A DNA stretch of 64,000 nucleotides from positions 1 to 64,000 of IMG/VR virus record IMGVR_UViG_3300036846_000488; one strand, 5' to 3'. The notes under the pieces were generated by a model that had not been told where the DNA came from, searched no databases, and saw only the letters and a program-made list of their open reading frames with translations. The translations under genes and the position numbers were made by a program. Below are positions 1,393 to 17,077 of this stretch, in pieces. The stretch comes from a virus. Position 1 is the first letter of the stretch; each line of letters begins with the position of its first letter.

Positions 1393-1761
1393 TCACTGCC
1401 GCCTACGGTTCATCGCGATGCCTCCAGCGCCAGCAGTCAGACCGCCGGCTGCGATGCCACCGGTCAGCCCGGGACGACCCTGCAAGGCCTGGCCTGCCTT
1501 CTGGAGCTTCCCACCGGCCTTCACGTAGCCAGCACCGATCGTCCGAGCACCCTGGTTGAACCCTGCGCTGGGATGCGGGTTCGCCCGCACCGCACCGAAC
1601 ACCTTGTTGCCCTGGCTCCGTACTCCAGAGCCCAGGTGCTCCACGCCACGACCGATGGCACCCCCAGGCTTGGCCAGCATCCGCCCAGCCGCACCCGCGC
1701 CGGGCAGCTTGAAGGCCTTCTCGATGTCACCGTGGTCGATGCCGAATGCGCTCTCCATCAC
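1393..1761 (-). CDS. Gly/Ala-rich cationic putative internal head protein with SAFGIDHGD leader
   Basis: MMESAFGIDHGDIEK|A leader shared with 2303-2617 and 14235-15212; C-terminal GGIAAGGLTAGAGGIAMNRRRQ. Confidence 0.6.
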   Translation of the reverse strand: MMESAFGIDHGDIEKAFKLPGAGAAGRMLAKPGGAIGRGVEHLGSGVRSQGNKVFGAVRANPHPSAGFNQGARTIGAGYVKAGGKLQKAGQALQGRPGLTGGIAAGGLTAGAGGIAMNRRRQ

Positions 1762-2303
1762 TCCTCCAAGAGTCCCTTGCGTCCACGACCAGCAGCCTCC
1801 ATGGCCAGCACCCGATCGGTCTCCTCGGGGTACTTGGTCAGGTAGCCCTTCACCTCATCCACCGTGTGATCGGCGGGGTCGTACTGCGGCATGTCGCTAC
1901 CCTCCTCGATCGGCTCCTGCTCGGGCTCGACGACCTCGCCATCGTCAGGAGTGGGTGCCAGAGCGTCCTCACCGGGGCCCTCAGGCTCCGGAGTGAGCTC
2001 GGGGTTGGTCAGCACGTCCAGGTCGATCGCGGAGTCAGGCTCGGTGGGCCAGACCAGCTGCACCCGGTCCCGGTTCAGGTACTCCTCGGCCTCCTCGCGA
2101 GTCCGGATGTGAGTGTGCCAGTGCCTGGGCTTCAGGTGACCCTCTTCCAGCACCGGGATCACGAACCGGGCCCGGACCAGGGTCTCGATGTTCCGGGCCT
2201 CCTCCTGCGGGAACTCCTGACCCAGCACGTACTCCTCACCGGCGTAGATGAAGTTCTTGGCCGCCAGGAAACTGATCCCGTCGTTCTTCAGCAGCTGAAC
2301 CAT
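1758..2303 (-). CDS. hypothetical head-associated protein
   Basis: Acidic linker plus C-terminal TVDEVKGYL...VLAMEAAGRGRKGLL mini-domain commonly encoded after actinophage capsid genes. Confidence 0.55.
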   Translation of the reverse strand: MVQLLKNDGISFLAAKNFIYAGEEYVLGQEFPQEEARNIETLVRARFVIPVLEEGHLKPRHWHTHIRTREEAEEYLNRDRVQLVWPTEPDSAIDLDVLTNPELTPEPEGPGEDALAPTPDDGEVVEPEQEPIEEGSDMPQYDPADHTVDEVKGYLTKYPEETDRVLAMEAAGRGRKGLLEE

Positions 2304-2617
2304 CAGCTCTCCTCCGGCTTCTTCTTCTTCAGCTTGATCGCCTTGCTGCCCTTGTAGTAGCCCTTGTTCTGGGCCGCATTCGCGCCCACCGCTCCGCCCA
2401 CGATCGGGACTCCGACCGCGCTACCCGCGAGCGCCGGAGCGAACTCATGGCCGGCGGCCTGCCACTTGTGGCCCTTCTTGCCGGCGATCAGACCGTGCGT
2501 GCCCGGGAACAGACCTGCGGTGATGCCTCGTCCGACGCTCATGTTGGAGCCGGTGGTCCAGTGCTCCGACTTCTTGTAGATGTCCCCGTGCTCGACTCCG
2601 AAGGCTGACTCCATCAT
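2303..2617 (-). CDS. Gly/Ala-rich cationic putative internal head protein with SAFGVEHGD leader
   Basis: MMESAFGVEHGDIYK|K leader, SD AGGAG, basic tail KLKKKK. Confidence 0.6.
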   Translation of the reverse strand: MMESAFGVEHGDIYKKSEHWTTGSNMSVGRGITAGLFPGTHGLIAGKKGHKWQAAGHEFAPALAGSAVGVPIVGGAVGANAAQNKGYYKGSKAIKLKKKKPEES

Positions 2618-2629
2618 GTGCTCCTAACA

Positions 2630-2680
2630 GAGACGGGCCGCGGGGTGGAACTCCTTCGGAGCATCCCCACAGCCCGTCTC
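2630..2680 (-). terminator. long stem-loop downstream of major capsid gene
   Basis: GAGACGGGC...GCCCGTCTC outer stem with further inner pairing; weak U tail. Confidence 0.6.
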
Positions 2681-2693
2681 AGAGTAGAACCTG

Positions 2694-3692
2694 CTACGCC
2701 ACCGCGTTGGCCAGGAAGATGCCCATGTCCTTGGCGACCACGCGCATGTCGTACGTCATCTCGCCCTCGATGCGGTCCGCAGCGATCGGCTCCATCCGGA
2801 AGTTCTTCATCCGGATCCCGAAGCTGTTCCCAGCCAGGTACCCGTTCCAGGTGAAGGTGTAGCCACCAGCCGGAGTCATCAGGGACGGCGAGCTGGGGGT
2901 GTAGACCAGCAGCGCCGACTTGGAGTTGGACATGAACTGGTACGTCGCGGCGGCGTCCTGCGCCTTGGCGTCGTTCAGCTCGGCCACGTTGGTCACCGTC
3001 GCGTAGCTGACCAGGATCCGCTCCACGTCGAACAGCGACGCGAGCAGGTCGGTGGTCACCACACCACGCTGGGTGTACTTGATCCGGTCGATGATGTCCG
3101 GGTGGTTCTTCAGCTGGGTGATCGTCCGAGCACCGAGGACCAGCGTGTTGGCCTTGCGGCCTGACTGCTCCACGAAGTTCGTCTGCAGGTCAGCGAACTG
3201 CACGATCGGGTCCGAGGCCGGGTCGCTCCACTGCAGGAACTGCCCTGCACCGACTGTCCCGGTCACGCCGGTGAGGTCGGTGCCCCACTGGCCGGTGGTG
3301 AAGAACTTGCTGTTCCAGTCCAGGTCCCGCCGGAGCAGGAGCTGGTTGGTCACGAACGTGGTCGCGTCCGAGTCCAGCCGCCAGTTCGAGTCGGCGTTGG
3401 AGCGCACCTGGTCGTCGATGTCCTTGTGGACACCCCAGACCTCGCAGAAGTACTGCCCCGTGTCGATCTTCCAACCGACTCCAGCCGTCTCGGTGCCGGG
3501 CGCGCGTTTCTGCGCGTCGGTCCTGCGCCAGTCGGACTTGGAGTACTTCCAGTACAGATCGCTCTGCTTCTGCACCGGCACCCGCGGGAACACCTTGTCC
3601 GCGATGAACTGCGCCTTGTCCTGCATGTAGGCGACAGAGACGTTGGTGAGCGGAACATTGACGTGGAGATCGCTCTGAGTGGGGTTCGGCAT
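2694..3692 (-). CDS. major capsid protein
   Basis: 332 aa; PLTNVSVAY...FIADKVFPRVPVQKQSD N-terminus of lambda gpE-like HK97-fold capsid proteins; follows scaffold and decoration genes. Confidence 0.88.
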   Translation of the reverse strand: MPNPTQSDLHVNVPLTNVSVAYMQDKAQFIADKVFPRVPVQKQSDLYWKYSKSDWRRTDAQKRAPGTETAGVGWKIDTGQYFCEVWGVHKDIDDQVRSNADSNWRLDSDATTFVTNQLLLRRDLDWNSKFFTTGQWGTDLTGVTGTVGAGQFLQWSDPASDPIVQFADLQTNFVEQSGRKANTLVLGARTITQLKNHPDIIDRIKYTQRGVVTTDLLASLFDVERILVSYATVTNVAELNDAKAQDAAATYQFMSNSKSALLVYTPSSPSLMTPAGGYTFTWNGYLAGNSFGIRMKNFRMEPIAADRIEGEMTYDMRVVAKDMGIFLANAVA

Positions 3693-3705
3693 GGCTTCTC
3701 TCCTC

Positions 3706-4107
3706 TCAGATCGTCAGGAGAACGTTGACGAGTTCTCCGGCGTTGGCGGCGGTGGACAGTGCGATGCCGACGATGGCGGTGGCACCTGCGGACGTGGCCT
3801 GGCCATCTGCACTGACCTGGACCTTGGCACCCGCGACGATCGGCGCATCGGCGACCACCTTGGACACCCCGTGGATGGCGACCGTGGCGGCCTGGCCGGC
3901 ACCCTGGGGCTTGTTCTGCATCACCCCGATGCAGGGACCGGTGCCATCACCCAGTCCCACCTGATGCACCCCGGTCACCTTCACGAAGTGGTACTGCTTC
4001 CCACCATTCGGATCCAGGGAGCCGGGCTGACCCGGGACTCCCGTGTAGATGCCCAGGGACGAGTCCGCGTTCAGCGTGATCGACCGTAGGCTCTCTTCGT
4101 AGGCCAT
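3706..4107 (-). CDS. capsid decoration/cement protein (DUF2190-like)
   Basis: 133 aa; GVMQNKP..GQAATVAIHGVSKV...VGIALSTA pattern; directly upstream of MCP. Confidence 0.75.
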   Translation of the reverse strand: MAYEESLRSITLNADSSLGIYTGVPGQPGSLDPNGGKQYHFVKVTGVHQVGLGDGTGPCIGVMQNKPQGAGQAATVAIHGVSKVVADAPIVAGAKVQVSADGQATSAGATAIVGIALSTAANAGELVNVLLTI

Positions 4108-4121
4108 GAGCTACTTCCCTC

Positions 4122-4946
4122 CTACCGGTTCTGCTGCGAACGCAGGTACTCGTCGTAGGCGTCCGGATTCTGGTCGAACACCGTATTGATGGCTGAGACA
4201 GCGTTGTAGTCCTCGGACTTCCCGAAGGCCTCGTGAGCGTGCGCCTCGACCTGGCTGTAGATGTCGGCGTTGTCGCCGCCACCCTGGTAGCCGGTCTCCT
4301 CGAAGATGATCTCGCCCGCCGTCTCCAGCGCCTTGGCGATCACCTTGCAGTCGTCGAAGCTCATCGTCTCGGCCATCCGGTAGAGCACCGGACCGAGCTC
4401 GTCGGCAGGGATCGGGAGGTTGTACTCCGCGGCCTTGGAGATGTACTCGCGGGTCAGCCGGAGGTCTCGCTCGGACTTCGCGATCCGGCTGTTCTCCTGC
4501 AGCGCGGTCTCCAGCTCCTCGACTCGACCGAGCGCCTTGGCGATCACCGAGTCGCGGTCCTTGTCGCTGAACGCCTTGCTGAGCTCCTCCATCACCGCAG
4601 CTGAGAAGCTGCCGGTCTGCGGAGCAGACTTCTCGAAGAAGGCCGACTTACCGACCCCAGCGAGCTCGGGCACGGGCTGGTCCTCCTCCACCATCACATC
4701 GCCGTCGTCCGCGCCATCGTCCTCGACGTACTCGTAGGCCTGGCCTGCGTCGTCGTACACGATGTCGCCGAACTCCAGCTGGTCCTCATCGAGGGGCTTA
4801 CCCTCCTGGTTGTAGAGCTTGGGCATCTCTTCCTCCTCGGGAGCCCGCTTCGCGATGACGAACCGTGAGTACTGGTTCGCGGCCTTGTCGACTGTGGAGA
4901 TCTCGTCGATCTCCATGTCCGTCAAGTTCTTGATCGGTCGTGGCAT
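4122..4946 (-). CDS. capsid scaffolding protein with N-terminal XkdF/prohead-protease strand
   Basis: Acidic, helical, upstream of decoration/MCP; begins MPRPIKNLTDMEIDEISTVDKAAN; 10 of 15 Lys lie in hydrophobic-x-K-[ASR]. Confidence 0.72.
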   Translation of the reverse strand: MPRPIKNLTDMEIDEISTVDKAANQYSRFVIAKRAPEEEEMPKLYNQEGKPLDEDQLEFGDIVYDDAGQAYEYVEDDGADDGDVMVEEDQPVPELAGVGKSAFFEKSAPQTGSFSAAVMEELSKAFSDKDRDSVIAKALGRVEELETALQENSRIAKSERDLRLTREYISKAAEYNLPIPADELGPVLYRMAETMSFDDCKVIAKALETAGEIIFEETGYQGGGDNADIYSQVEAHAHEAFGKSEDYNAVSAINTVFDQNPDAYDEYLRSQQNR

Positions 4947-4957
4947 CTCATCTACCT

Positions 4958-6337
4958 CTAGTTCTCAGTCTCACGGTGCTGTCCATTCGGGTTGTCGCTG
5001 TGATCGACTCCGAAGGCTGATGTGGTGTCGCGCTTCTCGTAGGACTGCCAGGAGTTCCTCCGGCCATGATGAGCCAGAGCAGCCCCGGCACCAGTCACCG
5101 CAGCCACCCCACCCAGACCAGCAGCGAGCTTCCCGCTCCGGGTTGCCTTGGCATGACGCACCGCCTGAGCCGCCTTCACGTTCGGCAGGTGCCGGGCCTG
5201 GATCTGACCCGCAGTCCGGTTCTTGCTCTCGTTCTTCAGCGCGTGGACTCCAGCCGCTACCGCACCTGTTCCAGTGCCCGCAGCCACGGACGCTCCACCG
5301 ACCTCGTACTTCTTCGCGCGCGCGTGCCGTTTCGCCTCGGGGTCGTAGTTCCGAGCCACCGGCTCCCAGGCCTTGGCGATCTCCTCCTCGATCTGCTCGT
5401 GGGTGATCGCGTGGCCCTCCTCACCGAAGTAGCCCATCTCCATGCCGAGGTCCGATGCTCCTTCAGACTTCTTCACCGGTACTGCCTGCTTCCGCCGGCG
5501 CGACTCCGCCGAGTAGATGCTCGCCTGGTTGAAGCCGCCCACGCCGCCGATGCCACCAGAGACGATCCCGGTGTTGATCGCGGCGTTCTTCATCCCCTCC
5601 GGAGTCGCGTTCCCCAGCTTCGGGACCTTCCGGATCGCCTTCAGGGTGCCGGTGCCCACCCTGCCCTTGCGCGCAGCCACCGCGGCCACGCCGGTGATCC
5701 CGAGCCCGGACAGACCCAGAGTGGAGGTGGTCCGGGCGATCTTGCCCTGGATCTTCTGGCGATGACGGAGCTCGGTGTCGCTCATCGAACGAGCCTTGCT
5801 GACCGGCTTCCGCGCCCTCAGCTTCGTCTGCTGGACGGCCAGCGTCTTCTTCTGCTCCTTCCGCGTCGCCAGTCCGGCGGTGGCAGTCAGTCCGGCTCCG
5901 CCTGCGATCCCAGCCATCCCCCAGCGACCCGGGTGGTGCGCCTTCTCCGCGGCCTTGGTACCGACATCGGTGATCAGATGCACCGACTCTCCCCGGGGGA
6001 TGAACCGCTTCTCCAGCTTCTCCTTGTTCTCAGCGATCTTTCGGTCTCGACGAGTCGTGCCGAGGTAGGCAGGAGAACCTGCTGCGGTGCCGATCACAGA
6101 TCCGGTGAGCACCGCGTTCAAGTTGGTGCCTCGACGGATGGAGCGGTCGTCCTTCATGTCCTGGTTCAGCTGGCCGAACCTGCGACCCTTCGGCTTCCCA
6201 TTCGACTTCAGACGGGTAGCTGGATCGCTGGTGAGGTTCCCGACCCGGGCCTGGGCCCGGGCCTGAGCCCTGCCCCGGACCGCGTGGAAGGCCCCACGCA
6301 CCTTGTCGGTCCTCTTCGGGAGCCTCAGCGTGGTCAT
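4958..6337 (-). CDS. cationic Gly/Ala-rich multi-module putative internal head polyprotein
   Basis: 459 aa, SD GGGAGG; repeated basic + small-residue hydrophobic segments separated by LEK|R, VSK|A, VKK|S, IAK|A, YEK|R; C-terminal SAFGVDHSD. Confidence 0.6.
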   Translation of the reverse strand: MTTLRLPKRTDKVRGAFHAVRGRAQARAQARVGNLTSDPATRLKSNGKPKGRRFGQLNQDMKDDRSIRRGTNLNAVLTGSVIGTAAGSPAYLGTTRRDRKIAENKEKLEKRFIPRGESVHLITDVGTKAAEKAHHPGRWGMAGIAGGAGLTATAGLATRKEQKKTLAVQQTKLRARKPVSKARSMSDTELRHRQKIQGKIARTTSTLGLSGLGITGVAAVAARKGRVGTGTLKAIRKVPKLGNATPEGMKNAAINTGIVSGGIGGVGGFNQASIYSAESRRRKQAVPVKKSEGASDLGMEMGYFGEEGHAITHEQIEEEIAKAWEPVARNYDPEAKRHARAKKYEVGGASVAAGTGTGAVAAGVHALKNESKNRTAGQIQARHLPNVKAAQAVRHAKATRSGKLAAGLGGVAAVTGAGAALAHHGRRNSWQSYEKRDTTSAFGVDHSDNPNGQHRETEN

Positions 6338-6390
6338 AAACGCCTCCCGTGGCCGTTGCAGAAAGACTTTCCGGCCCCTACGCTGAAAGA

Positions 6391-6714
6391 ATGGGATCCA
6401 GCAAGGAGTACATGCGCGAGTGGCGAGCGAAGAACCAGGACAAGATACGCGAGTACAACCGCAAGAGTCGGTACAACAGGTACGGCCCCTCCCGCCAGGC
6501 CGCCATCGACTACCTCGGTGGGCGGTGTCACGGCTGCGGCTTCGATGATGTCCGATGCCTCGATGTCGACCACGTTTTCGGCGGTGGGAGCAAGGAGCGC
6601 GCTCGGCGCGACCGGATTGCCTTCTACAAAGATGTCGTCGCCGGGGACCGCCCAGATGTCCAGCTTCTCTGTCTCAACTGCCATCGGATCAAGACCTCTC
6701 TGGAGCGTCAGTAA
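6391..6714 (+). CDS. HNH endonuclease, free-standing, antisense to the structural operon
   Basis: CHGCG...LDVDHV.GGG...QLLCLNCHRIKT HNH/Zn motif. Confidence 0.85.
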   Translation: MGSSKEYMREWRAKNQDKIREYNRKSRYNRYGPSRQAAIDYLGGRCHGCGFDDVRCLDVDHVFGGGSKERARRDRIAFYKDVVAGDRPDVQLLCLNCHRIKTSLERQ

Positions 6715-7834
6715 CAGGACTCCGACGGCCCGAGCCATGGATGCTGAACCCGGTCCGCTCGCCGGACTTCACCTTCGCCCAGACATCGGGATCCTGGACC
6801 TTGAATCCGACCCACCAACCGGTGGGCACCGAGTCTGGCAGACCCATCGCGTCTCGCTTCTCCGGAGTCACGATGAAGCTCTCGATCATCTCGCTCTTCT
6901 GGACCGGGCTCCAGTCGTCACGCAGGTGCATGTCCCCGCCCTTGCGGGACTTCATCACGTACTCGTAGCCGGCCTTCTCCATCTCGTCGACGGAGATGTA
7001 GTCGCCCTGCAGATCTACCACCGGCTCCCCGTTCACCTCCACCACCGAGGCCCAGCCGAAGATCTGCTGCTTGTCGGCGTCGGCCTTGGAGATCTCGGCG
7101 TTCCAGATCACGTCTACTTCGGTGTCGTCGGCCTTGCTGATCTGAGGTACCGGTTGGACGAACTTCCCCCGTACCTTCCCGTTCGGCTTGGCGGTGCCGG
7201 CTCGCACCCGCTCGTTGTACGCCGCCCGCATCTTCTCCTTGTCGAACCGGAGCGCCTTCTCGACCTGGTTGGTGGTGATCACCTTGTCCGGGAGCTTCTT
7301 CAGCGCCCCAGCGCCCTTCTTGGTGTACTCCAGCCCCTTCTTCCGGACCTTCGGGTTGGAGATCACAGCCATGGTCAGCTGTCCCTTGGTCCGGGGGATG
7401 CCGGCGTTGTTCCGCATGTCGGTGGAGTCCGCCTTGACCACCGGAGTCTTCTTCTTGGTGTCCCCGTGCAGGATCTTGGTGGCCATCAGCTCACCACCCA
7501 GCCCCGCCACCTCCAGTGGCACCAGTCCGGCGGCCAGCTTCTTGGACTTCACCGCGGTCTTCAGCGCCCTGAACTTGGCCCTGGGTGCATGGAACTCGTG
7601 GGCTGCCTGCTGCGCCTCCCGAGCCTTGCGGTACCCGCCATGCGTCTCAGAGGCAGCCAGCCCCAGACCAGCAGCACCAGCGGTGGCTCCGACCGCGCTC
7701 AGCCCGGCGGTGAACGCTCGCTTGCGCTTGTCGTGGGTGGCCAGGTCGGACTGGGCGGGGTTCATCTTCTCGATCAGCTCGTCGCCGCCACCAGCGAGGA
7801 TCAGCTCGGCTACCTCCCGCATCACATCGCTCAT
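6689..7834 (-). CDS. XkdF-like (S78-type) prohead serine protease with long N-terminal cationic extension
   Basis: C-terminal core 6689-7084: IFGWASV...DLQGD...GDMH...ESF...GWWVGFKV...WAKVKSGERTGFSIHG. Confidence 0.82.
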   Translation of the reverse strand: MSDVMREVAELILAGGGDELIEKMNPAQSDLATHDKRKRAFTAGLSAVGATAGAAGLGLAASETHGGYRKAREAQQAAHEFHAPRAKFRALKTAVKSKKLAAGLVPLEVAGLGGELMATKILHGDTKKKTPVVKADSTDMRNNAGIPRTKGQLTMAVISNPKVRKKGLEYTKKGAGALKKLPDKVITTNQVEKALRFDKEKMRAAYNERVRAGTAKPNGKVRGKFVQPVPQISKADDTEVDVIWNAEISKADADKQQIFGWASVVEVNGEPVVDLQGDYISVDEMEKAGYEYVMKSRKGGDMHLRDDWSPVQKSEMIESFIVTPEKRDAMGLPDSVPTGWWVGFKVQDPDVWAKVKSGERTGFSIHGSGRRSPVTDAPERS

Positions 7835-7856
7835 GTGTCCATCGTCCTAGCCTCCG

Positions 7857-10532
7857 CTACTCGTACGGGCGCATCGGGACGACCGGGATCTCCCGGCCCT
7901 CGTCCTCGATGTAGTCGGTGGTCGGTCCCGTCTCCACGTACTGGCCGGACAGTTTGAACATGTGCGGCCCTGCCGTCCGAACCATGTTCTCGTCCCGATG
8001 CCCGTGCTGGACCTCCAGCACCCGGTAGTTGAACTCGTCGGGATGCACCCCGGCCTGCTCCAGCACGTCCTGGTCGTTGACGTAGGAGAAGTCCTCGGAG
8101 ACTCGATGCCCCATGCTGTCGGTCCAGATCACGTCCTCGTAGTTGTCCAGATCGATGTCGTTCCAGGTCTCACTCTGCTGCGTGCTGGTGGCGAACCGGT
8201 GCAGCGCGGCCTCGAAGGACTGTGAGCTAACCACGGCGTACATCGGCTCACCATCCTCATCGACGCTCTGGACCCGAACTGAGCCGTTGTGATGAGATCC
8301 CAACACCGCGTCCAGGATCTCGTCCTCCTTCGCCCGGCGGGCCTCGGTGACCGCCATCCCGACCTGATCCCGGGAGTCGACGAACAGCTTCTGATCCAGG
8401 TACATGTCGGTGTCGTAATCACTCAGGTGCACCACCGCGTAGTAGGAGCGACCATCCGGATGCAGCTGGACCGGCCCGTACGGAGCCAGGTCCGGCTTGC
8501 CCTCGGGCTGCACCGCGGGCTCCACGTTGATCGCCGTGGAAGGTCCCGTCAGGTTGATCTCCGAGGGCGCTCCGGTCAGATTGATCTGCTGCTCTGGTAC
8601 CAGGCTGATCGTGGGCTGAGCGATCGAGATCTCCGCCGGCGCGATGTTGATCTCCTCCTGAGCGATACTGATCTGACGCTTGGGCCGAGGTCGCGGAGCG
8701 ATGTTGATCAGACCGCCGGTGATGTTGATCTCCTTCGGCTCTGGGGTCTCGGACTCAACCATCGGCTCCTCGGGCTCCTCCATCGCCGCTAGCTGCCGCC
8801 AGATATCGGCCCGCGGGCGCTCCTTGGTGGTCACTCGGGAGAAGCGGCCTGGGTTCTCCGGATCGCCCCCGCGCGGGTGCTCCTTGGCATCCCAGTCGGC
8901 CTTGGAGATCCGGTGCGAGGTCTGCTTCAGATGCACGACGGTGAGCCCGTTGTCCTCCCCCACCTGCGTGATCTGGAACTCTCCCCGGGTGATCCACTCC
9001 GCCTGCCGCTCGGAGACCAGCGGAGAAATGTTCAGCGCGTTGGCCTTCGGCTCCAGCATCATCACCAGTGGATGCGCGGAGGTGTCGGTCCGGCCCTCAC
9101 GCTTCGCGTGCGCGCGAGCGATCATCGGGCCCCACTTCCGGGCGAAGTGCTCGGAGAACGACCGATCCTCGGTGAACGAGGAGATCGGCAGGGTGAAGGT
9201 GCTGCCCTGCTTCAGCTCGTCCAGATGCTCGGTGGTCACCGTCATCCCCCGGTACAGCGCTGGAGCGTTCGCCGGCGCGGAATCCACAGCCTTGATCAGT
9301 GCCTTCAGCGACTTCTCGGTCTGGCTCAGCTTCATCTTGCCGGCGTAGTACTCGTTGTCCGGGTCCTCCATCTTCCGCGCCCGCTGGACGTGTGCGGACT
9401 TCCGGGACCAGGCCGCAGCGCCGTGCGCCAGCCGAGCCATCTCCTTGTCCCGGTGCTTCAGTGGGGTGATCAGGTAGCGCGGCTCCTTGACGTAGCCGAC
9501 AGCCTGAGCACTTCGGTGAACGATGGTTCCCTGGATCACCTTGGCTGAGGGGCTCTCCAGGGCGTTCACCTTGTGCCCAAGCTGCCGAGTTCGGGACTGG
9601 CCCCCGGCCCAGCGACCGTCGCCCCCACGCGGCTGATGCGGATCGAACCGCTTCTCCAGCTTGAACCGGTTCTCGATCAGTCGAACCACACACCGACAGT
9701 TCGGGTGCACGCCCGGTGACCAGAAGTCACCTTCCTTGGTCTTGAACTGCTCGTTGACCAGCACCTTCTGCCCGTGCAGCGGGCCGCACACCGGACAGAC
9801 CCGCTCGTCGTGAGCGGTGATCCAGATCTTCTGAGCGCGCTCGGTGAGCCGGCCCTTGTCCTGCATCCACATCCAAGCGAACTGCTTGGCCTGCTCCTCG
9901 ATGTTGTGCTCTTCCTGCTCGCTCAGCTTCTTGACCCGACCGGTGAAGGACTTGTCGATGTAGTCCCTGGACCTGGCCTTCACGTCGAACGACGCCGGAG
10001 ACTCCACCGAGGTGGTCAGCTGCTGGTTGTGTGCGTACCCGCGCATCTGTCGAGGGGTCAGCCCGTAGGCGTCCAGCACCTTGTCCGCTGCCGCCTTGGC
10101 CGGGATCCTCCGGTTCACCATCGTGTTGAAGCCCTCGGCCAGCGCATCCCGAGAGGAGGCGTGGAAGTAGTCCCCGACCTTCTCCGCGTGCTTCTCGGCC
10201 AGGTCGTAGATCACGCTCATCGGCACGTCACCGGCTCCGGCCCGCGTCCACGCGCGCACGTAGGCGTCCGCGATCACCGGAGCTGAGACCTTCCGGTACT
10301 GCGGCAGGAGGATCTGCCAGGTCATGTCTGCCAGCCGCAGCAGCTGACCGTAGGTGGGCTCTACCAACCCCCGCGCCTCGGCCTTCATCTGCGACACCAT
10401 CCGGGCCCGGACCATCGCCAGCGCGGCCTCCAGGGCCTCGGCTGGTGAGGTCAGGAAAGCCCCCGGGGCGGGTAGATCCCGGGGTCGGAGATCGGTGGGG
10501 TTGAAGTGCAGCTCAACCGAGGGAGAGGTCAC
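7857..10532 (-). CDS. MuF-like minor head protein fused to an ADP-ribosyltransferase domain and an unknown C-terminal domain
   Basis: KIWIT..DERVCPVC..LHG...HPNCRC MuF signature; LYRGM...ISSFT...QAEW R-S-E ART motifs at about 8901-9650. Confidence 0.8.
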   Translation of the reverse strand: MTSPSVELHFNPTDLRPRDLPAPGAFLTSPAEALEAALAMVRARMVSQMKAEARGLVEPTYGQLLRLADMTWQILLPQYRKVSAPVIADAYVRAWTRAGAGDVPMSVIYDLAEKHAEKVGDYFHASSRDALAEGFNTMVNRRIPAKAAADKVLDAYGLTPRQMRGYAHNQQLTTSVESPASFDVKARSRDYIDKSFTGRVKKLSEQEEHNIEEQAKQFAWMWMQDKGRLTERAQKIWITAHDERVCPVCGPLHGQKVLVNEQFKTKEGDFWSPGVHPNCRCVVRLIENRFKLEKRFDPHQPRGGDGRWAGGQSRTRQLGHKVNALESPSAKVIQGTIVHRSAQAVGYVKEPRYLITPLKHRDKEMARLAHGAAAWSRKSAHVQRARKMEDPDNEYYAGKMKLSQTEKSLKALIKAVDSAPANAPALYRGMTVTTEHLDELKQGSTFTLPISSFTEDRSFSEHFARKWGPMIARAHAKREGRTDTSAHPLVMMLEPKANALNISPLVSERQAEWITRGEFQITQVGEDNGLTVVHLKQTSHRISKADWDAKEHPRGGDPENPGRFSRVTTKERPRADIWRQLAAMEEPEEPMVESETPEPKEINITGGLINIAPRPRPKRQISIAQEEINIAPAEISIAQPTISLVPEQQINLTGAPSEINLTGPSTAINVEPAVQPEGKPDLAPYGPVQLHPDGRSYYAVVHLSDYDTDMYLDQKLFVDSRDQVGMAVTEARRAKEDEILDAVLGSHHNGSVRVQSVDEDGEPMYAVVSSQSFEAALHRFATSTQQSETWNDIDLDNYEDVIWTDSMGHRVSEDFSYVNDQDVLEQAGVHPDEFNYRVLEVQHGHRDENMVRTAGPHMFKLSGQYVETGPTTDYIEDEGREIPVVPMRPYE

Positions 10533-13500
10533 GCGGTGTTCTTCCGACGCAAGTAGCCCTCGTCATCCTGCTCGAACAACTCCGATCGGGTCTCAGCCAG
10601 ACCACGCTCACCAAGGTCTAGCTTGTTGTGCCGGTCCGGAAGCGTCTCGTACGCATGCTGGGTTTTCGCCAGCATCTCGCCAATCTCCACCTCACTCGGA
10701 GTCTCCCCGCTCTCGATCAGAGTCTGCAGCTCCTCGGCAGCAACCAGCGCCTTGTCACCGGGAGTGACATCGAGGAGCCCGTGACCATACCGCCAACGAC
10801 GCAGCGCCTCGACTCGCTGTCGCACCACTGCCTGCTTCTCGACATCGCTCATCGCCTGGCCCACCGAGTTAGGAGCGCTCGGACGCACCGCGACGCTCCG
10901 ATCCCATGAGCCCTGGTAATGTGCCTTGAGCGCGCGCATCCGGTGCACGTCGGTGATCCGTTCGAGCAGGTCTTCCTTCTTCGCACCCACGATCATGTCG
11001 ATGGCCCGGTTGTCGTAGTGGTCCTTGAAGATCCGCTGAGCCACCTGCCGGCGCATGTCGATGTTGTTCGGGTCCTGGACTGCCGGGTTCCGGTCGACCT
11101 CCTGGTAGACCTGGCGCAACGCACTGAGCTCGTTCTTCATCGCCTCATCGCCCCGCCTCGCCACCTCGGACAGAGGTAGTCCGGTGGTCACCGAACGGGT
11201 CCGGTTGTCGATCGCCTGGATCTGGGTGTCACGCTGAGCGTCGGAGTCGGTGGTCTGGTAGCCCTCGCCCTGGAACGTCATCGGGTCCGTGGTCCAGTAC
11301 AGCGCCATCCGAGGATCGAAGGCCACCGCGTTCAGGTCTCCGCGTGAGGCCGCATAGGCCTGAAGCGCGGACCTCTGACTGGGTGAGGACAGGTGACTCC
11401 GCAGCCTCTCGACCAGCTCGTTGAACCGAGCGTTGTGCTCCGGGTCCTGGATGGCCGTGGCGAAGGCCCCTGGATCTACCTTCGAGTCTGCCAACCCGAT
11501 CACGTCCTCGAACGCGAGCCGAGATGCCGGGTCGAGAGGCAGCTGCTGGATCTCGGTGAACAGATTCACCGCGCTGTCCTGGTACTGAGCCTGACGAGCG
11601 GCCTGGTCGACAGGTGTTGGCGCTCCTGCCGCTGTGGTCTCTGGAGTCGCAGCGGCCTCCTCCGTCGCCTCCGTCTGCGGGTTCGCAGCCCGCTGGTGGG
11701 GCACCCGATCGCCCTGACCAGGACCGATCCGACCACGCTGGTAGTCGGCCTGGGAGGCGGAGAACTTCTCGCTCCCGACCGAGCCACCGGCAACGGCGTT
11801 CGCCTCGGTGCCGAACAGACCCGCGCGCACCGCCGTGGGCCGGTTCCGACCGGGCTCGACGTAGCCCTTGTCCTTCTCTCCGGAGAAGGTCTCGTCCTCC
11901 TTGGTGATCACCGGGTGGGACTTGATGTAGTACGGGAACTGCTCGGCCAGCGCGTCCTGCGCGGCCTCGTAGCCCTTGGCATTCAGCTTGTAGTTCCCGG
12001 CCTTGCCGGCCATCACCATGTTCCGGGCAGCCCGGGACCACTCCACCTCATCCCGAGAGGGGTGATCCTTCATCCCCTGCTCGGCCACCAGACGCATGAT
12101 CTTCTCGTCCTCGGGAGTGAAGTCCGGGTCCTCCTGGTACTCCATGATCCGGGACTGGACCTTGGCCTTGATCGCCGGCCCGCGCTCGCCCGGGTACTCC
12201 TGCGCGACCTCGCGCTGGATCGCCTGCCGGACCGGAGCCGGCACGTCACCGGTGCTGACCTTGTTCGACTGCACCGCATCCAGGAGCTGCTCGTAGCGTC
12301 GGGTCATCCGCAGCGCCTTGTCGTTGTACCGACGCCCGCCCCGGAAGTCCTGCTCGAACTCGATCGAGAAGGTGCCCGAGCGCGAGGTCACCGTGACCCG
12401 ACGCGCACCGGAGATCAGCCCGGTGTAGATGTCCTCGGAGGTCAGCCCGCCCACCGAGCGGGTCCGGACGTACTCCCCACCCTTCAGCGCCTTCAGGTTC
12501 TTCAGGTTGAACGGCAGGTAGTGGTCGTCGCCGTAGCCGACCGCCTGAGTGACGATCTGCCCGTCCTTGTTCAGGATGATTCCCTCCGAGGGCGGCAGGT
12601 TCCCGGACTCGGACTGCAGGTTGTAGAGCTCCCCCTTGGGGAAGTTGGGGGAGCGCCTCAGCTGCTGGACGATCACCTTCCGGCCCTGAGCCAGTTCCGA
12701 ACGAGTCGGCGGGCGATCCATCGCCTTGGCCCGAGCAGCACCCATCTGGGAGATCGAAGGAGCGACCGGTCCGCCACCCTTGGGGTGCACCCGAGTACCC
12801 GACCGACGCATCCCGAGCTCGTCAGCCCGGGGCTTCTCACCGGCCCGAGGGACGTAGAGCTCGGTCTGGTCCGGCACCCCACCGGTGCTCTTGGCGCTCG
12901 CGATCGCGCGCCCGTAGAGCGCCACGATGTGCGCGTCCGGCTTCTTCTCGGTGCCCCGGTACCGATAGGCCGTCTTCCGGGCGGTAGGGCCGATCACGGC
13001 CTCGGCCTCGGCACCATGGCTGCCCACGACCTCCGCGAGCTTCGCCGCAGCCGCCACCTTCGTTCCCGGTGCGATCGCACCGACGTAGGAGCCGGTAGTA
13101 CCCACCCGGTTGTACAGACGCTCGTTGGAGGCCTTCATGTCCGGGGGAGCAGCGCGCCACTGAGCACCGAACGTGGGCATCTGGTCCAGAGCGGTGTTGG
13201 CCATCTCCATCCGCTGGCCGGTCCGGTCACCGGGCTGAGCACCCAGCGCGTGCGCCAGGCTGAACGCAGCCCCGCCGGCGGTCAGTGTGGTGGGCGTGGC
13301 GTCGGCCTCCAGCAGCGTGTAGTGCGGGTTCAGCAGCAGATGGTTGGCGTCGCCGGCCCCGCCCATGTGCCGGACCCGGAACTCGTTCCCCTGCTGGTCC
13401 GCGAACCGCAGGTGCACCTGACGGTCTCCGTCCGCGCCAGTGGACTGGCTGGCCACGTTCAAGAAGCCGGCCAGCTGTCGGTACTCGTCCTGGTACTGGG

Positions 13501-14233
13501 CCTTCTGCTCCTTGGTCAGCCGGGCGTACTGCATCCGCTGGGCGGGGTCGTGGGGCACCAGGCCCATCCCGTTCGCGACCTTGTTCGAGAACGGGGCCTT
13601 CTGGTTGTGCTTGATCTTGGACCGGAACTGACCGGAGTGCGGGTCGCGACGGAAGTCGGACTCCTTGAACTCGTAGAGCCCGGCGATGTAGGGGTTGACC
13701 ACCGCCTTCTCGATCTCCTCCAGGGCAGCCGCAGCCTCCTTCGCGCCCTCGTGGTGGCCCTTCGCGATGGTGGCCATCATCGCCTTCTTGACCAGCTCCA
13801 CCCGCTGGTACAGCACCTCGTCCAGGTGCCGCTGCAGAGTGCGCAGGTTCTTCTCCACGTCGGTCTCGAAGATCTCGCCGGCCACCATGGTGGTGAACAT
13901 CTCGGCGGAGTCGTCGTCCATCTTCATCACCAGGTCGAAGGTCTTCCTGGCGGCCTCGTGGTTGAACTCGGGGTCATCGGAGTGCACATGTTCCTCGTAG
14001 AGGTACTTCTTCACCCGGCCCTTCTTCTTCCGCCGGTGCTCGCGCTCGATGTCCTGGACCCGTGGGAACTGGTTGGCCAGGCCACCGGCCACGGTGCCGG
14101 CGATGACCGGCTTCAGCCAGCCCTCACCCCTGGACTTGGCGATCTTCCCGCCGGTCTCCTTGTCCCACTTCGCCGCGATCTGGGGGTGCTTGGCGTGCAT
14201 GAACTTCCGCTGAGCAACGCTCTTGTAGGGCAT
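10529..14233 (-). CDS. large (1234 aa) putative internal/ejected head protein with degenerate JAB-like domain
   Basis: Start reassigned to MPYKSVAQRKF (14233); lies between portal and MuF; internal EGIILNKDG...GGEYVRTRS..GLTSEDI. Confidence 0.6.
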   Translation of the reverse strand: MPYKSVAQRKFMHAKHPQIAAKWDKETGGKIAKSRGEGWLKPVIAGTVAGGLANQFPRVQDIEREHRRKKKGRVKKYLYEEHVHSDDPEFNHEAARKTFDLVMKMDDDSAEMFTTMVAGEIFETDVEKNLRTLQRHLDEVLYQRVELVKKAMMATIAKGHHEGAKEAAAALEEIEKAVVNPYIAGLYEFKESDFRRDPHSGQFRSKIKHNQKAPFSNKVANGMGLVPHDPAQRMQYARLTKEQKAQYQDEYRQLAGFLNVASQSTGADGDRQVHLRFADQQGNEFRVRHMGGAGDANHLLLNPHYTLLEADATPTTLTAGGAAFSLAHALGAQPGDRTGQRMEMANTALDQMPTFGAQWRAAPPDMKASNERLYNRVGTTGSYVGAIAPGTKVAAAAKLAEVVGSHGAEAEAVIGPTARKTAYRYRGTEKKPDAHIVALYGRAIASAKSTGGVPDQTELYVPRAGEKPRADELGMRRSGTRVHPKGGGPVAPSISQMGAARAKAMDRPPTRSELAQGRKVIVQQLRRSPNFPKGELYNLQSESGNLPPSEGIILNKDGQIVTQAVGYGDDHYLPFNLKNLKALKGGEYVRTRSVGGLTSEDIYTGLISGARRVTVTSRSGTFSIEFEQDFRGGRRYNDKALRMTRRYEQLLDAVQSNKVSTGDVPAPVRQAIQREVAQEYPGERGPAIKAKVQSRIMEYQEDPDFTPEDEKIMRLVAEQGMKDHPSRDEVEWSRAARNMVMAGKAGNYKLNAKGYEAAQDALAEQFPYYIKSHPVITKEDETFSGEKDKGYVEPGRNRPTAVRAGLFGTEANAVAGGSVGSEKFSASQADYQRGRIGPGQGDRVPHQRAANPQTEATEEAAATPETTAAGAPTPVDQAARQAQYQDSAVNLFTEIQQLPLDPASRLAFEDVIGLADSKVDPGAFATAIQDPEHNARFNELVERLRSHLSSPSQRSALQAYAASRGDLNAVAFDPRMALYWTTDPMTFQGEGYQTTDSDAQRDTQIQAIDNRTRSVTTGLPLSEVARRGDEAMKNELSALRQVYQEVDRNPAVQDPNNIDMRRQVAQRIFKDHYDNRAIDMIVGAKKEDLLERITDVHRMRALKAHYQGSWDRSVAVRPSAPNSVGQAMSDVEKQAVVRQRVEALRRWRYGHGLLDVTPGDKALVAAEELQTLIESGETPSEVEIGEMLAKTQHAYETLPDRHNKLDLGERGLAETRSELFEQDDEGYLRRKNTA

Positions 14234-14234
14234 C

Positions 14235-15212
14235 TCAGGATCCCTTCTTCTTGCGACCGGCGAGCAGGCCACCAGCGGCTACCGTACCGACTACCGCCGA
14301 TGGGCCGCGGAACCTGCGCACCACCTTCGCGGTGTCCCCGTACACCTCGGCGAAGTGAGTCGCCTGCGCGGCATCGCCACGGAGCCTGCCGGCCTTCGCC
14401 GCGGTCTCGTGCGAGACACCGTGCAGGTACTTCTTCGGGTCTCGTGCCATCGCCTCATCGGAGTGCACCGGATACCTGGACTTGGGGAACGGCTGGCCCG
14501 GGTGCCTCTTGACCTGCCGCGCGTACTGCTTGTCGGTGACCGTGGGGTCCTTGCGTCCTGCCATGCTCGGGATCAGTCGCCCAGCCTCATCGATGGCGTG
14601 GCTGGCCCGGTTGTTCCACTTCTTCTCCTGACGCCCCAGCACCGCGCCAGCACCGGTGCTGACCGCCGCGCCGGTGGCACCAGCACCCGCGAGGGTGGCG
14701 TTGTACGCCTGGCCTCGACGACGGTCCTTGCGCACCTCGCTCTTGGCCCGGTGCACGCCGTACGCCGTGGCCGCAGAGCCACCGATCAGCGCTGCGCCGG
14801 CGACCTTCTTGGCCCCCGCCATGTGCCGCAGCACCTGCAGCTCCGGCTTGATCTTGCCCTGGTTCCGAGCGCGGGTGAACGTCTGCGAGGGAGTCGGGTT
14901 CTTGATCTTGGACTTCTTATCCTCCACCCGCTGGAACCACTTCACGCCGCCCTCATGGACAGCACTGCGGTAGCCGAGGACACCGCCACCGCCCAGCTTC
15001 GCTCCGGCCCTGGCCTTCCCAGCCAGCCCTGGCTCCTTCAGCCGAGCCACGTCGTGGTAGCTGCCCTTGACCCCGGGGATGCCACCGGCCACCAGTCCGG
15101 TCCCTGCCGTGACCGCGCCAGCACCGGCGATCGCCGAGCCCTGAGCATGGCGCTTGTCGCTGTTCTTCTTGGAGACCACATCGCCATGGTCGATCCCGAA
15201 CCCGCTGATCAT
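14235..15212 (-). CDS. Gly/Ala-rich cationic putative internal head protein with SGFGIDHGD leader
   Basis: MISGFGIDHGDVVSK|K leader; several AGA/GxxxG segments each followed by basic residues. Confidence 0.6.
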   Translation of the reverse strand: MISGFGIDHGDVVSKKNSDKRHAQGSAIAGAGAVTAGTGLVAGGIPGVKGSYHDVARLKEPGLAGKARAGAKLGGGGVLGYRSAVHEGGVKWFQRVEDKKSKIKNPTPSQTFTRARNQGKIKPELQVLRHMAGAKKVAGAALIGGSAATAYGVHRAKSEVRKDRRRGQAYNATLAGAGATGAAVSTGAGAVLGRQEKKWNNRASHAIDEAGRLIPSMAGRKDPTVTDKQYARQVKRHPGQPFPKSRYPVHSDEAMARDPKKYLHGVSHETAAKAGRLRGDAAQATHFAEVYGDTAKVVRRFRGPSAVVGTVAAGGLLAGRKKKGS

Positions 15213-17077
15213 CGCTTCCCCTTCGGTGGGGGCTTCTTCGCGGTCTTCTTCGATGCTCCTACGGACCTGGCCGGCGGCTTCGCGAACCGCTGCTTGTCCT
15301 TCAGCTGCTGGGCGGTCAGCTTGGCGTTCGTGGCAGCGGAGCGGTCCTTCAGCCGCATCTGCTCCTTGGTCCGCTTGTGATCTCGGTTGGCCATCGTGTC
15401 CTGCAGGCGCATCTTCTCCTTCTCGCGCCCGTGCTGGGACTGAGCCACCTTCTCCTGCTGCTGCATCATCTGCAGCTGGCGACCATGCTCCTTGTCGGCG
15501 TTCGGGTCCTCAGGCGGCGGCTGGTTGGCCAGCTGCTGCTGCTGAGCCTGCATCTGCAGGTCCTGCTCCTGGGTGGCCGGGTGCGGAGTCTGGGCGTGCA
15601 TCTCGGCCTGCTCCGGGGTCATCCCCTGCGCCGTCATGTCGGCCTTCTGCTTCAGCCCGAGCAGCTCCATCTGGCCCTGCCCGTACTCCATGGCCTGCTG
15701 CTGCTCCAGCATCACCTTCTTGTAGTCCACGTCCTCGTCGGTCATCTCCGGGAGGCGAGCGATCTCGCGGATGTACTTCTCCAGCTCCGGGTCCGGGAAC
15801 CACTGCATGCCGGCACCAGCGGTCGCCGAGATGAAGGCAGCCAGCTGGTCCAGGGCCGGCGGATCCACATTGGTGGGCTCGAACCTGGGCAGCTCGTCCA
15901 GCTTCCAGCCGTTCACCGCGAACAGCCGGGGCACCGCGTATCGGTTCAGGGTGTCCGCGATGGACTTGGTGATCGCGTTCAGAGCAGCCCGGAAGATGCC
16001 GGTCTTGTCGGTGTGCAGGGAGTAGGAGCCGGTGTCCTGGTGTCCGACCAGGATGAAGTCGGCCAGCACGCTCATCAGGATCCGCTGCTCGTAGCGCTGG
16101 ATGATGCTGTTGGTGTCGAACTGCCGGGTGCCACCGGAACTCATCAACTCGAAGTCGAACAGCGGCTGCTTGGTGTCCGGGTCGTACTGGGTGGGCAGCA
16201 CCAGGCCCTCGTTCTCATCCCGCCTGACCCCGCGGACCATCTTCCGGAAGGCGTCCACGGTCTTCGCCTGCGGGGTGCCCTTGGCCGCAGTCAGGTAATC
16301 GGCAGGTACCCGACCCACCGGCATACCCGCCAGGTCACGCTCGACACCGATCGCCTCGAACTCCTCCAGCCGCTTCTTGAAGTACCAGGACCGGTAGGAG
16401 CTGCGGAGCAGGCTCAGACCCTCGGGGTTGCCCTTGGCGATGGAGGTTCGGAACAGGATGCTCTTCTCGATCGGGATCACCGTGGTGGCGTACCGGGGAG
16501 GTGCCATCTGCACCATCGCCCGGATCCCGCCGGTCTCGTCGAAGGACCAGCGCAGCATCGTCTCCTGCGCGCGGATCGGCATCTTCCGCCAGCCGATCTT
16601 GCCGTCCGTGTACTTCGAGCGCTTCTTGGGATTCTTCTCCCAGGGACCGACCCGCTTCTTGTAGACGATCTCGTGCCAGGACCAGCCGAAGGTGATCATC
16701 GAGAGGATCTCGCCGATCAGGTCGTCCCAGCTGTGGGACATGTCCTCCATGCAGGATTCGAGGAACTCCTGGGCCTCATCACCGTCCGTGCCTGAGTCTG
16801 CCGGCAGCACCTTCCACTCCACCTCGCGGAGCAGCTTGTCGATGCTGAACAGCAGCGCCCCGACCATCGAGTCGTTGGACGCCATCTCCCGGTAGACCCG
16901 GACCGCCTTGCGGCCACGCAGCGCCGGCAGGAACTCCTCGTCGATGTAGCCGGAGACCCGCTTGAGTCCGGTGACACCGAGCTCCTCCATCGGACCCGAC
17001 CGCTGCGGGACCTCATCGCCGGCGTTGTCCTCGTCCCAGGTGGAGATGTCACCCTGAGGGAGCCGCACGTCTGCCAT
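15209..17077 (-). CDS. portal protein (Mu gp29/DUF935-like) with Gln-rich and basic C-terminal extension
   Basis: Follows TerL; FGWSWHEIVY, NPEGLSLLR..Y..W..K, IGVERDLAGMP motifs. Confidence 0.85.
   Translation of the reverse strand: MADVRLPQGDISTWDEDNAGDEVPQRSGPMEELGVTGLKRVSGYIDEEFLPALRGRKAVRVYREMASNDSMVGALLFSIDKLLREVEWKVLPADSGTDGDEAQEFLESCMEDMSHSWDDLIGEILSMITFGWSWHEIVYKKRVGPWEKNPKKRSKYTDGKIGWRKMPIRAQETMLRWSFDETGGIRAMVQMAPPRYATTVIPIEKSILFRTSIAKGNPEGLSLLRSSYRSWYFKKRLEEFEAIGVERDLAGMPVGRVPADYLTAAKGTPQAKTVDAFRKMVRGVRRDENEGLVLPTQYDPDTKQPLFDFELMSSGGTRQFDTNSIIQRYEQRILMSVLADFILVGHQDTGSYSLHTDKTGIFRAALNAITKSIADTLNRYAVPRLFAVNGWKLDELPRFEPTNVDPPALDQLAAFISATAGAGMQWFPDPELEKYIREIARLPEMTDEDVDYKKVMLEQQQAMEYGQGQMELLGLKQKADMTAQGMTPEQAEMHAQTPHPATQEQDLQMQAQQQQLANQPPPEDPNADKEHGRQLQMMQQQEKVAQSQHGREKEKMRLQDTMANRDHKRTKEQMRLKDRSAATNAKLTAQQLKDKQRFAKPPARSVGASKKTAKKPPPKGKR

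Follow-up and report, generated by a model that had tools for sequence, protein, structure and literature searches.

SAFG[VI][DE]H, a candidate capsid-loading tag on basic head-region proteins of an uncultured lineage of tailed phages

Described capsid-targeting systems and the SAFG motif

To our knowledge, experiments have demonstrated capsid-targeting signals in only a few myoviruses (T4 and P1). Here, we examined a 64,000-nucleotide stretch of viral DNA (hereafter, the window), which makes up the first 64 kb of one virus record of 81,256 bp (IMG/VR record IMGVR_UViG_3300036846_000488) and in which four head-operon proteins with unrelated bodies share a short peptide with the core heptad S-A-F-G-[VI]-[DE]-H. 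On balance, the sequence comparisons described below lean toward the view that this heptad is a position-independent capsid-loading tag, which would be removed by an XkdF-type prohead protease and would act much as the capsid-targeting sequence (CTS) of T4 does.

The T4 CTS is N-terminal only, and the T4 prohead protease, gp21, cuts after Glu; the SAFG motif presumably bears no sequence resemblance to it. Passages on the T4 head describe the CTS as a short leader common to highly diverse basic proteins of the head interior (IPI–III and Alt) and located beside a prohead-protease site (PMC3012670; Mullaney and Black 1996 via PMC9024508), and the internal-protein cargo is described there as thought to be injected with the DNA (PMC3012670). 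The SAFG motif is similar in that it forms a short leader on otherwise unrelated proteins whose genes accompany the head genes (113 contexts, 51 BLASTP clusters, and 593 profile matches, as detailed below). It differs in that it can lie at either end of the protein or internally, in its Lys boundary, and in its setting, an ~80-kb siphovirus with an XkdF-type protease, a Mu-type portal, and a major capsid protein (MCP) of phrog_1005. Membership in the T4 system was ruled out because the protease belongs to PF14550 and is not of the gp21 type, and because the head type differs; the analogy would be a functional one.

In P1, according to the sections of PMC9024508 on the Dar proteins, the N-terminal signal of DarB suffices to send a reporter to the capsid, and the authors found no consensus among the Dar N termini. 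Here, by contrast, one invariant heptad is common to hundreds of proteins. Encapsulins dock their cargo inside an HK97-fold shell by means of a short N- or C-terminal peptide that is not removed, and they have no portal, terminase, or protease. The occurrence of the SAFG tag at either end of orthologous proteins recalls this arrangement, but an encapsulin was ruled out because portal, large terminase, tail, and tape-measure genes are present and the consensus differs. In the giant phages SPN3US and phiKZ, the propeptides are long and dissimilar, and their only common feature is a cleavage motif ending in Glu. Passages on these phages describe a prohead protease that trims many head proteins and ejection proteins in the course of maturation (PMC5694885, PMC7411985, PMC10052503). 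Those propeptides differ from the present tag in that they are not one shared address heptad.

Two further systems share individual features with the SAFG tag. In Staphylococcus phage 80-alpha, the capsid and scaffold proteins carry an identical short L27-like N-terminal leader, which is cut by the host protease Prp; likewise, different head proteins have a common leader here, which would also be clipped, judging from its boundary residues. An L27/Prp-type mimic of a host protein was ruled out because a search of 185,579 genomes of bacteria and archaea did not find the motif in its N-terminal form. In herpesvirus UL26/UL26.5 and lambda C/Nu3, the scaffold and protease share capsid-binding tails through nested genes with long common C termini. 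The scaffold protein of the window similarly contains the first half of the cargo tag, K-SAF[FG], but the shared element is a portable heptad and does not arise from nested genes.

The heptad and its lysine boundary

The initial annotation had proposed four copies of the motif, and all four were found where it had placed them, on the minus strand and at the termini of head-operon proteins. Between each tag and the body of its protein lies a boundary site, which we define as hydrophobic-x-Lys. gp122 (tag, 1717..1761) begins with (M)MESAFGIDHGD and an I-E-K boundary, gp104 (2573..2617) with (M)MESAFGVEHGD and I-Y-K, and gp325 (15168..15212) with MISGFGIDHGD and V-S-K. The C-terminal tag of gp459 (4994..5041) consists of Y-E-K (5033–5041), RDTT, and SAFGVDHSD (4994–5020), with 11 more residues before the stop. 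The leaders stand as annotated, but the starts of the two genes read as MMESAFG may not: since Shine–Dalgarno spacing and an M-x-S-A-F-G rule in relatives favor the second Met (1758 in gp122 and 2614 in gp104), these proteins are suggested to begin with M-E-S-A-F-G. In a six-frame translation of the whole 81,256-bp genome, FG[IV][DE]H matched exactly four times, far above the chance expectation of 0.04 (residue frequencies) or 0.017 (60 Markov simulations).

Related viral contigs provided 113 distinct contexts of the tag (90 N-terminal, 15 C-terminal, and 8 internal or unclear). The core across these contexts was S-A-F-G-[VI]-[DE]-H, with rarer variants that differ at the sixth position. In the 90 N-terminal tags, the start codon always lay exactly 2 or 3 codons before Ser; Phe, Gly, and His were invariant, and Ser and Ala were found in 88/90 and 89/90, respectively. 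A hydrophobic-x-Lys site stood between tag and body in all 90, with Ile, Val, or Phe at P3 in 90/90 and Ser, Glu, or Ala at P2 in 82/90, and the first Lys was 2–7 residues past His in 88/90. Within the bodies, hydrophobic-[SAETY]-K occurred at only 0.32 per 100 aa. In the C-terminal form, the reading frame often stopped right at His (..SAFGVEH-stop), and the boundary was displaced to the other side of the heptad: hydrophobic-x-K was located 0–6 residues upstream of Ser in all 21 interpretable C-terminal or internal tags, as read by eye. Among the true internal tags retrieved by the profile search described below, Lys directly preceded Ser in 26 of 29. The Lys site is thus an obligatory companion of the tag and always lies between tag and body, which indirectly supports the idea that the tag is cleavable. 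Since the spacing between tag and Lys varies, the two appear to be separate elements, a putative binding core and a putative excision site.

The constraint lies at the level of the peptide. Ser was encoded by both AGY and TCN codons, all third positions varied among tags, and RNA around the tag starts showed no excess folding compared with shuffled controls (z = +1.0, +0.4, and −0.15). The freedom of synonymous codons and the unstructured RNA indicate that selection acts on the peptide and not on DNA, and an RNA or DNA signal was rejected on these two grounds. It is barely credible, for the same reasons, that the shared peptide is functionless, left behind by repeated duplication or recombination or by a DNA- or RNA-level signal. 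The 17-nt identity between 2592–2608 and 5004–5020 (TCAGCCTTCGGAGTCGA), noted in the initial annotation and reproduced here, would fit such an origin for two of the window tags, although the remaining two use other synonymous codons than this stretch. The comparative data already contradict this explanation, as the motif is kept down to 50% MCP identity while the bodies diverge beyond recognition.

The tag has a mean net charge of −1.2 and no hydrophobic run. A Sec or Tat signal peptide was ruled out, since the tag is acidic, lacks a hydrophobic run, and also occurs at C-terminal and internal positions.

The tag is also the most conserved part of each gene. In an alignment of the gp122 family (9 orthologues), it formed the most conserved block, and an AlphaFold2 model of this family, of low confidence (pLDDT 51), left it unstructured. 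This conservation, together with the constant release of a small Lys-bounded fragment that the boundary would imply, could also be explained if the tag were a recognition or modification site for an enzyme, like the leader of a RiPP, or if the excised peptides of 7–24 residues were themselves the product, such as a signal or acidic peptides that are packaged. We consider this improbable: no modifying-enzyme domain was recognized in the head operon with Pfam or PHROGs, where the 1247-aa, gp181, gp167, and gp161 proteins gave no Pfam or PHROG function, and the bodies are conserved as families and uniformly basic, hence not mere carriers.

Distribution across one lineage

A motif search across viral contigs, which the initial annotation had proposed in the expectation that the tag would be confined to head operons with XkdF-like proteases, found it only in the head regions of one lineage with an XkdF-type protease. 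A degenerate DNA pattern for [AG]FG[VI][DE]HGD matched 52 IMG/VR stretches. About two-thirds of these matches had the form M-x-SAFG..HGD..K at the start of a reading frame, and the others, which were scattered and internal and had no Met, no preceding Ser, and no following Lys, served as a chance control. The N-terminal-type matches adjoined syntenic homologues of the window head genes, with the exceptions of L022 (a short contig), L024, and L041; L041 is tied to the lineage through L056. In the tag-bearing relatives, MCP identity was 50–96% where covered, and the scaffold, the cement protein, gp167, and XkdF were also present. Five near-complete relatives (76–81 kb) contained 6, 6, 7, 1, and 2 heptads, which were on one strand within each genome, and in the three relatives with at least 6 heptads, all copies were inside a stretch of 11–18 kb. 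A backwards-read control pattern had no match in these five genomes.

We also built a tag profile from 89 N-terminal tags and searched 1.84 billion proteins, clustered at 50% identity, with E values up to 0.001. This search retrieved 593 representative proteins or clusters, and the tag was at residues 1–5 in 143 of the best 150 matches. All ten sampled clusters were metagenomic, and for three of these ten the longest contigs were 69–81 kb. The assignment of the 593 matches to one lineage is based on the viral-contig loci, the ten sampled clusters, and the three long contigs. Together, these results show that the tag is restricted to one uncultured lineage of ~80-kb tailed phages.

Outside this lineage, the N-terminal tag pattern gave 11 chance-like matches in the 185,579 bacterial and archaeal species genomes, none of which was N-terminal with a Lys boundary, and host-protein mimicry or a prophage origin was therefore rejected. 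A tblastn search of 50,697 deposited phage records with whole tagged proteins and a 20-residue tag (E up to 10, with limited sensitivity for the short query) found no match, although close relatives of the window may be hidden from this set. The nearest cultured phages, whose hosts are Arthrobacter, Rhizobium, Pseudomonas, and Roseobacter, have at most 47% MCP identity. Arthrobacter phage Kharcho (L001) and the distant relative L062 (MCP 39–44% identical) had neither the SAFG tag nor an alternative shared leader within the stretches fetched. The DnaE-like polymerase alone has its best matches in actinophages (~35%), which links the host only weakly to those of actinophages. In agreement with the initial annotation, which knew of no description of the motif, we found no paper that contains it.

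Portable tags, basic cargo, and the scaffold

The initial annotation had described the tag as portable between the N and C termini, and the comparison strongly supports this: N-terminal, C-terminal, and internal tags all occur, and the tagged end has been swapped among orthologues of gp325. These orthologues align over their full length with 29–44% identity; those of the window, L059, and L060 have an N-terminal tag, and those of L030, L054, L056 (in the alignment), and L061 have a C-terminal tag and no N-terminal one. The bodies are diverse, as 90 N-tagged bodies fell into 51 BLASTP clusters. Of 27 larger tagged proteins, none had a Pfam match at the curated cut-off and three had weak sub-threshold matches, and searches for a cargo function gave no PHROGs function and, in the ESM Atlas, only unnamed viral clusters below 0.85. 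That the motif stays invariant while the bodies are unrelated speaks for a single receptor that acts in trans. In L023 (2300–4300, plus strand), the most divergent member (MCP 50% identical), Asp takes the place of His in five tags (SAFGV[ED]D), and one tag keeps His; such a concerted change would be expected if all tags serve one partner.

The cargo bodies are uniformly basic. The four in the window proved cationic and rich in Gly and Ala, as the initial annotation had stated (pI 9.8–11.5, net charge +7 to +44, Gly plus Ala 27–40%), and all 240 bodies examined had a pI above 9 (median 11.4–11.6). gp122, gp325, and gp459, but not gp104, contain uncharged Gly/Ala stretches of 15–22 residues. 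The combination of a mildly acidic tag with very basic bodies, often bearing such stretches, would suit an inhibitory pro-peptide, or a handle of the chaperone or degron type, that keeps membrane-active or DNA-binding proteins harmless in the cytoplasm until their processing in the head. We regard this explanation as quite unlikely, if marginally less so than the modification-site one. Intramolecular inhibition hardly accounts for a 7-residue core that is invariant across more than 50 unrelated bodies, and one to four acidic residues cannot balance charges of +7 to +44. Degrons are typically terminal, as most of the tags are, but internal, Lys-flanked tags do not fit a signal that acts at a free end.

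The first half of the cargo tag recurs in the scaffold protein, where a V-G-K-S-A-F-F island occupies residues 98–104 (4635..4655, minus strand). The island is invariant among homologues as [VIM]-[GA]-K-S-A-F-[FGL], the acidic linker around it is hypervariable, and residues 75–112 had an AlphaFold2 pLDDT below 50 and are predicted to be disordered. In the two most divergent scaffolds, those of L023 and L035, the island reads K-SAFG. In 15 head-operon proteins checked, [ST][AG]F was found only in the four tags, the scaffold island, and a TGFSIHG segment of the protease. It is possible that the cargo tags and the scaffold share a docking site, or that the protease prefers SAF on the primed side of some of its cuts. 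Hydrophobic-[SAE]-K sites are densest in the scaffold (2.2 per 100 aa; 6 sites), and five of these six are conserved in 19–23 of 23 homologues.

We infer the following course of events for the favored explanation, that of a loading tag. The tag would dock basic precursors on one shared receptor inside the assembling procapsid. This receptor might be the XkdF protease, the inner surface of the capsid protein, the portal, or a binder of the scaffold K-SAF[FG] island. The XkdF-type prohead protease would then cut at the hydrophobic-x-Lys site, and the basic cargo would stay in the head with the DNA and probably exit with it at infection, like the T4 internal proteins. If this is true, the lineage has a sharply defined capsid-targeting signal in a different head type, one with a Mu-type portal, an XkdF protease, and a separate scaffold. 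It would show features unreported for T4, namely, placement at either terminus and at internal joints, a simple rule of Lys-bounded excision, and a half-motif in the scaffold. The proposal also gives a role to metagenomic proteins, numbering in the hundreds, that lack a known function and, if confirmed, would offer a compact means of packaging proteins into phage heads, a module of two parts, the heptad and the Lys site.

A more specific and more tentative version of the loading-tag explanation, which we would not yet back over its absence, is that the heptad is an orientation-independent label that copies the scaffold K-SAF[FG] docking motif, so that one procapsid receptor serves both scaffold and cargo. 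A tag at either end, combined with the Lys site, would then allow scarless loading and release, and the cargo would be DNA-condensing proteins or ejection proteins that cross the envelope. Such an arrangement, if true, would give a siphovirus a natural and programmable means of packaging proteins.

The main rival of the loading-tag explanation is that the tag is only a protease exosite, which recruits XkdF to the flanking Lys sites, while the cargo enters by other means, such as charge attraction to the acidic scaffold. The opposite charges of scaffold (net −34) and cargo (+7 to +44) are consistent with this, as are the internal joints, which have Lys sites on both sides of the tag. Single polyproteins contain up to four tag-plus-module units, and a complete tag is present at each joint. 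In L039 (1–1400, plus strand), the portal reading frame runs into ..KVKK-SDTT-SAFGVDHGDISK-G.. and a 75-aa module, resulting in a portal–tag–cargo fusion; this locus has seven tags, six of which (the fusion tag and five tagged genes) lie between the portal and the homologue of the 1247-aa protein. We nevertheless consider recruitment alone rather unlikely. Cutting at a terminal tag removes only the tag, and recruitment by itself gives no reason for the tag to be there; the tag must therefore act before its removal. The exosite explanation merges with the loading-tag explanation if the protease is the receptor inside the procapsid.

Several points weigh against the loading-tag explanation. The polyproteins with a full tag at every joint (up to four) would also fit a mainly protease-recruiting tag, and the fusion tag of L039 follows the portal C terminus, where targeting seems needless. 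All tag-bearing contigs are of one lineage, known only from metagenomes, so common descent confounds the co-occurrence of the tag with XkdF. For the specificity of XkdF-type proteases, we found no paper on XkdF cleavage and no solved relative. The concerted change of the tags within L023 could stem from gene conversion and not from co-evolution with a receptor. Finally, the AlphaFold2 model of the scaffold has a helical C-terminal half, and four conserved I-A-K or I-S-K sites lie inside predicted helices. Conservation of these Lys sites may thus be structural, according to the model, and they carry little weight as evidence of cleavage.

The head operon and neighboring genes

The head operon is encoded on the minus strand in the order terminase, portal, gp325, 1247-aa protein, MuF-like protein, protease, gp459, scaffold, cement protein, MCP, gp104, gp181, gp122, and gp167; the features below are on this strand unless stated otherwise. 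The large terminase subunit (17104–18606) and the portal (15209..17077; PF06074, Mu-type) are followed by gp325 (14235..15212), a tagged cargo protein of 325 aa (pI 10.7, net +35) encoded directly downstream of the portal gene. The 1247-aa protein, which has no known domain, and the MuF-like 891-aa protein (PF04233) together occupy 7857..14272; both are untagged and are located between tagged genes. Residues 14–47 of the 1247-aa protein (14132–14233) recur with 69% identity in L035 (1825–1929, in head-gene orientation), at the beginning of another gene, one that resembles gp459, and this N-terminal stretch may be a second portable N-terminal module.

The XkdF-type prohead protease (6689..7834; PF14550 at residues 247–370, E = 2e-20) is the candidate tag-removing enzyme. 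Its residues 1–240 are a basic N-terminal extension, which has no tag but resembles the cargo in an uncharged Gly/Ala stretch (residues 40–62), and I-S-K sites at K234 and K250 are at the boundary with the protease domain. The protease segment T-G-F-S-I-H-G (residues 361–367; 6734–6754) resembles the gp325 tag, S-G-F-G-I-D-H-G, with one gap, a similarity that may be coincidental. An HNH endonuclease gene (PHROG E = 5e-12; 6349–6714, plus strand) lies inside the head operon, partly over the 3′ end of the protease gene; relatives have tagged cargo genes in its place.

gp459 (4958..6337), a basic protein of several modules (459 aa, pI 10.9, net +44), is encoded immediately upstream of the scaffold gene. 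The corresponding slot in relatives contains proteins ending in ..YAK-RDxx-SAFG[VI]DH... Residues 185–459 constitute a separate gene in L017 and L025, which starts just past the position of the V-S-K181 joint in the window (residues 179–181; 5795–5803), and gp459 resembles a fusion of modules. The scaffold (4122..4946; 274 aa, pI 4.2, net −34) was assigned from synteny and PHROG matches. It is followed by a cement or decoration protein (3706..4107; PF09956) and by the MCP (2694..3692; phrog_1005, E = 2e-87), whose surface is a candidate receptor.

Two smaller tagged cargo proteins lie beyond the MCP gene. gp104 (2303..2617; 104 aa, pI 9.8) had only five homologues in our search (P0001–P0005), all of which were metagenomic, and gp122 (1393..1761; 122 aa, pI 11.5) has a Gly-zipper-like C-terminal segment. 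Between them, gp181 (1758–2303) is strongly acidic (net −25), conserved in the lineage, and always found amid tagged basic genes; the cargo may be its partner. Elsewhere, the genome has genes for a major tail protein and for a 1981-aa tape measure containing peptidase and transglycosylase domains, which together identify the phage as a siphovirus. The record is cut inside a gene. One reading frame leaves the window at its start (2–397) and seems to resume at the far end of the 81-kb record (L074:16525–17256, minus strand), so that the record would be circularly permuted. Direct terminal repeats were present in one relative.

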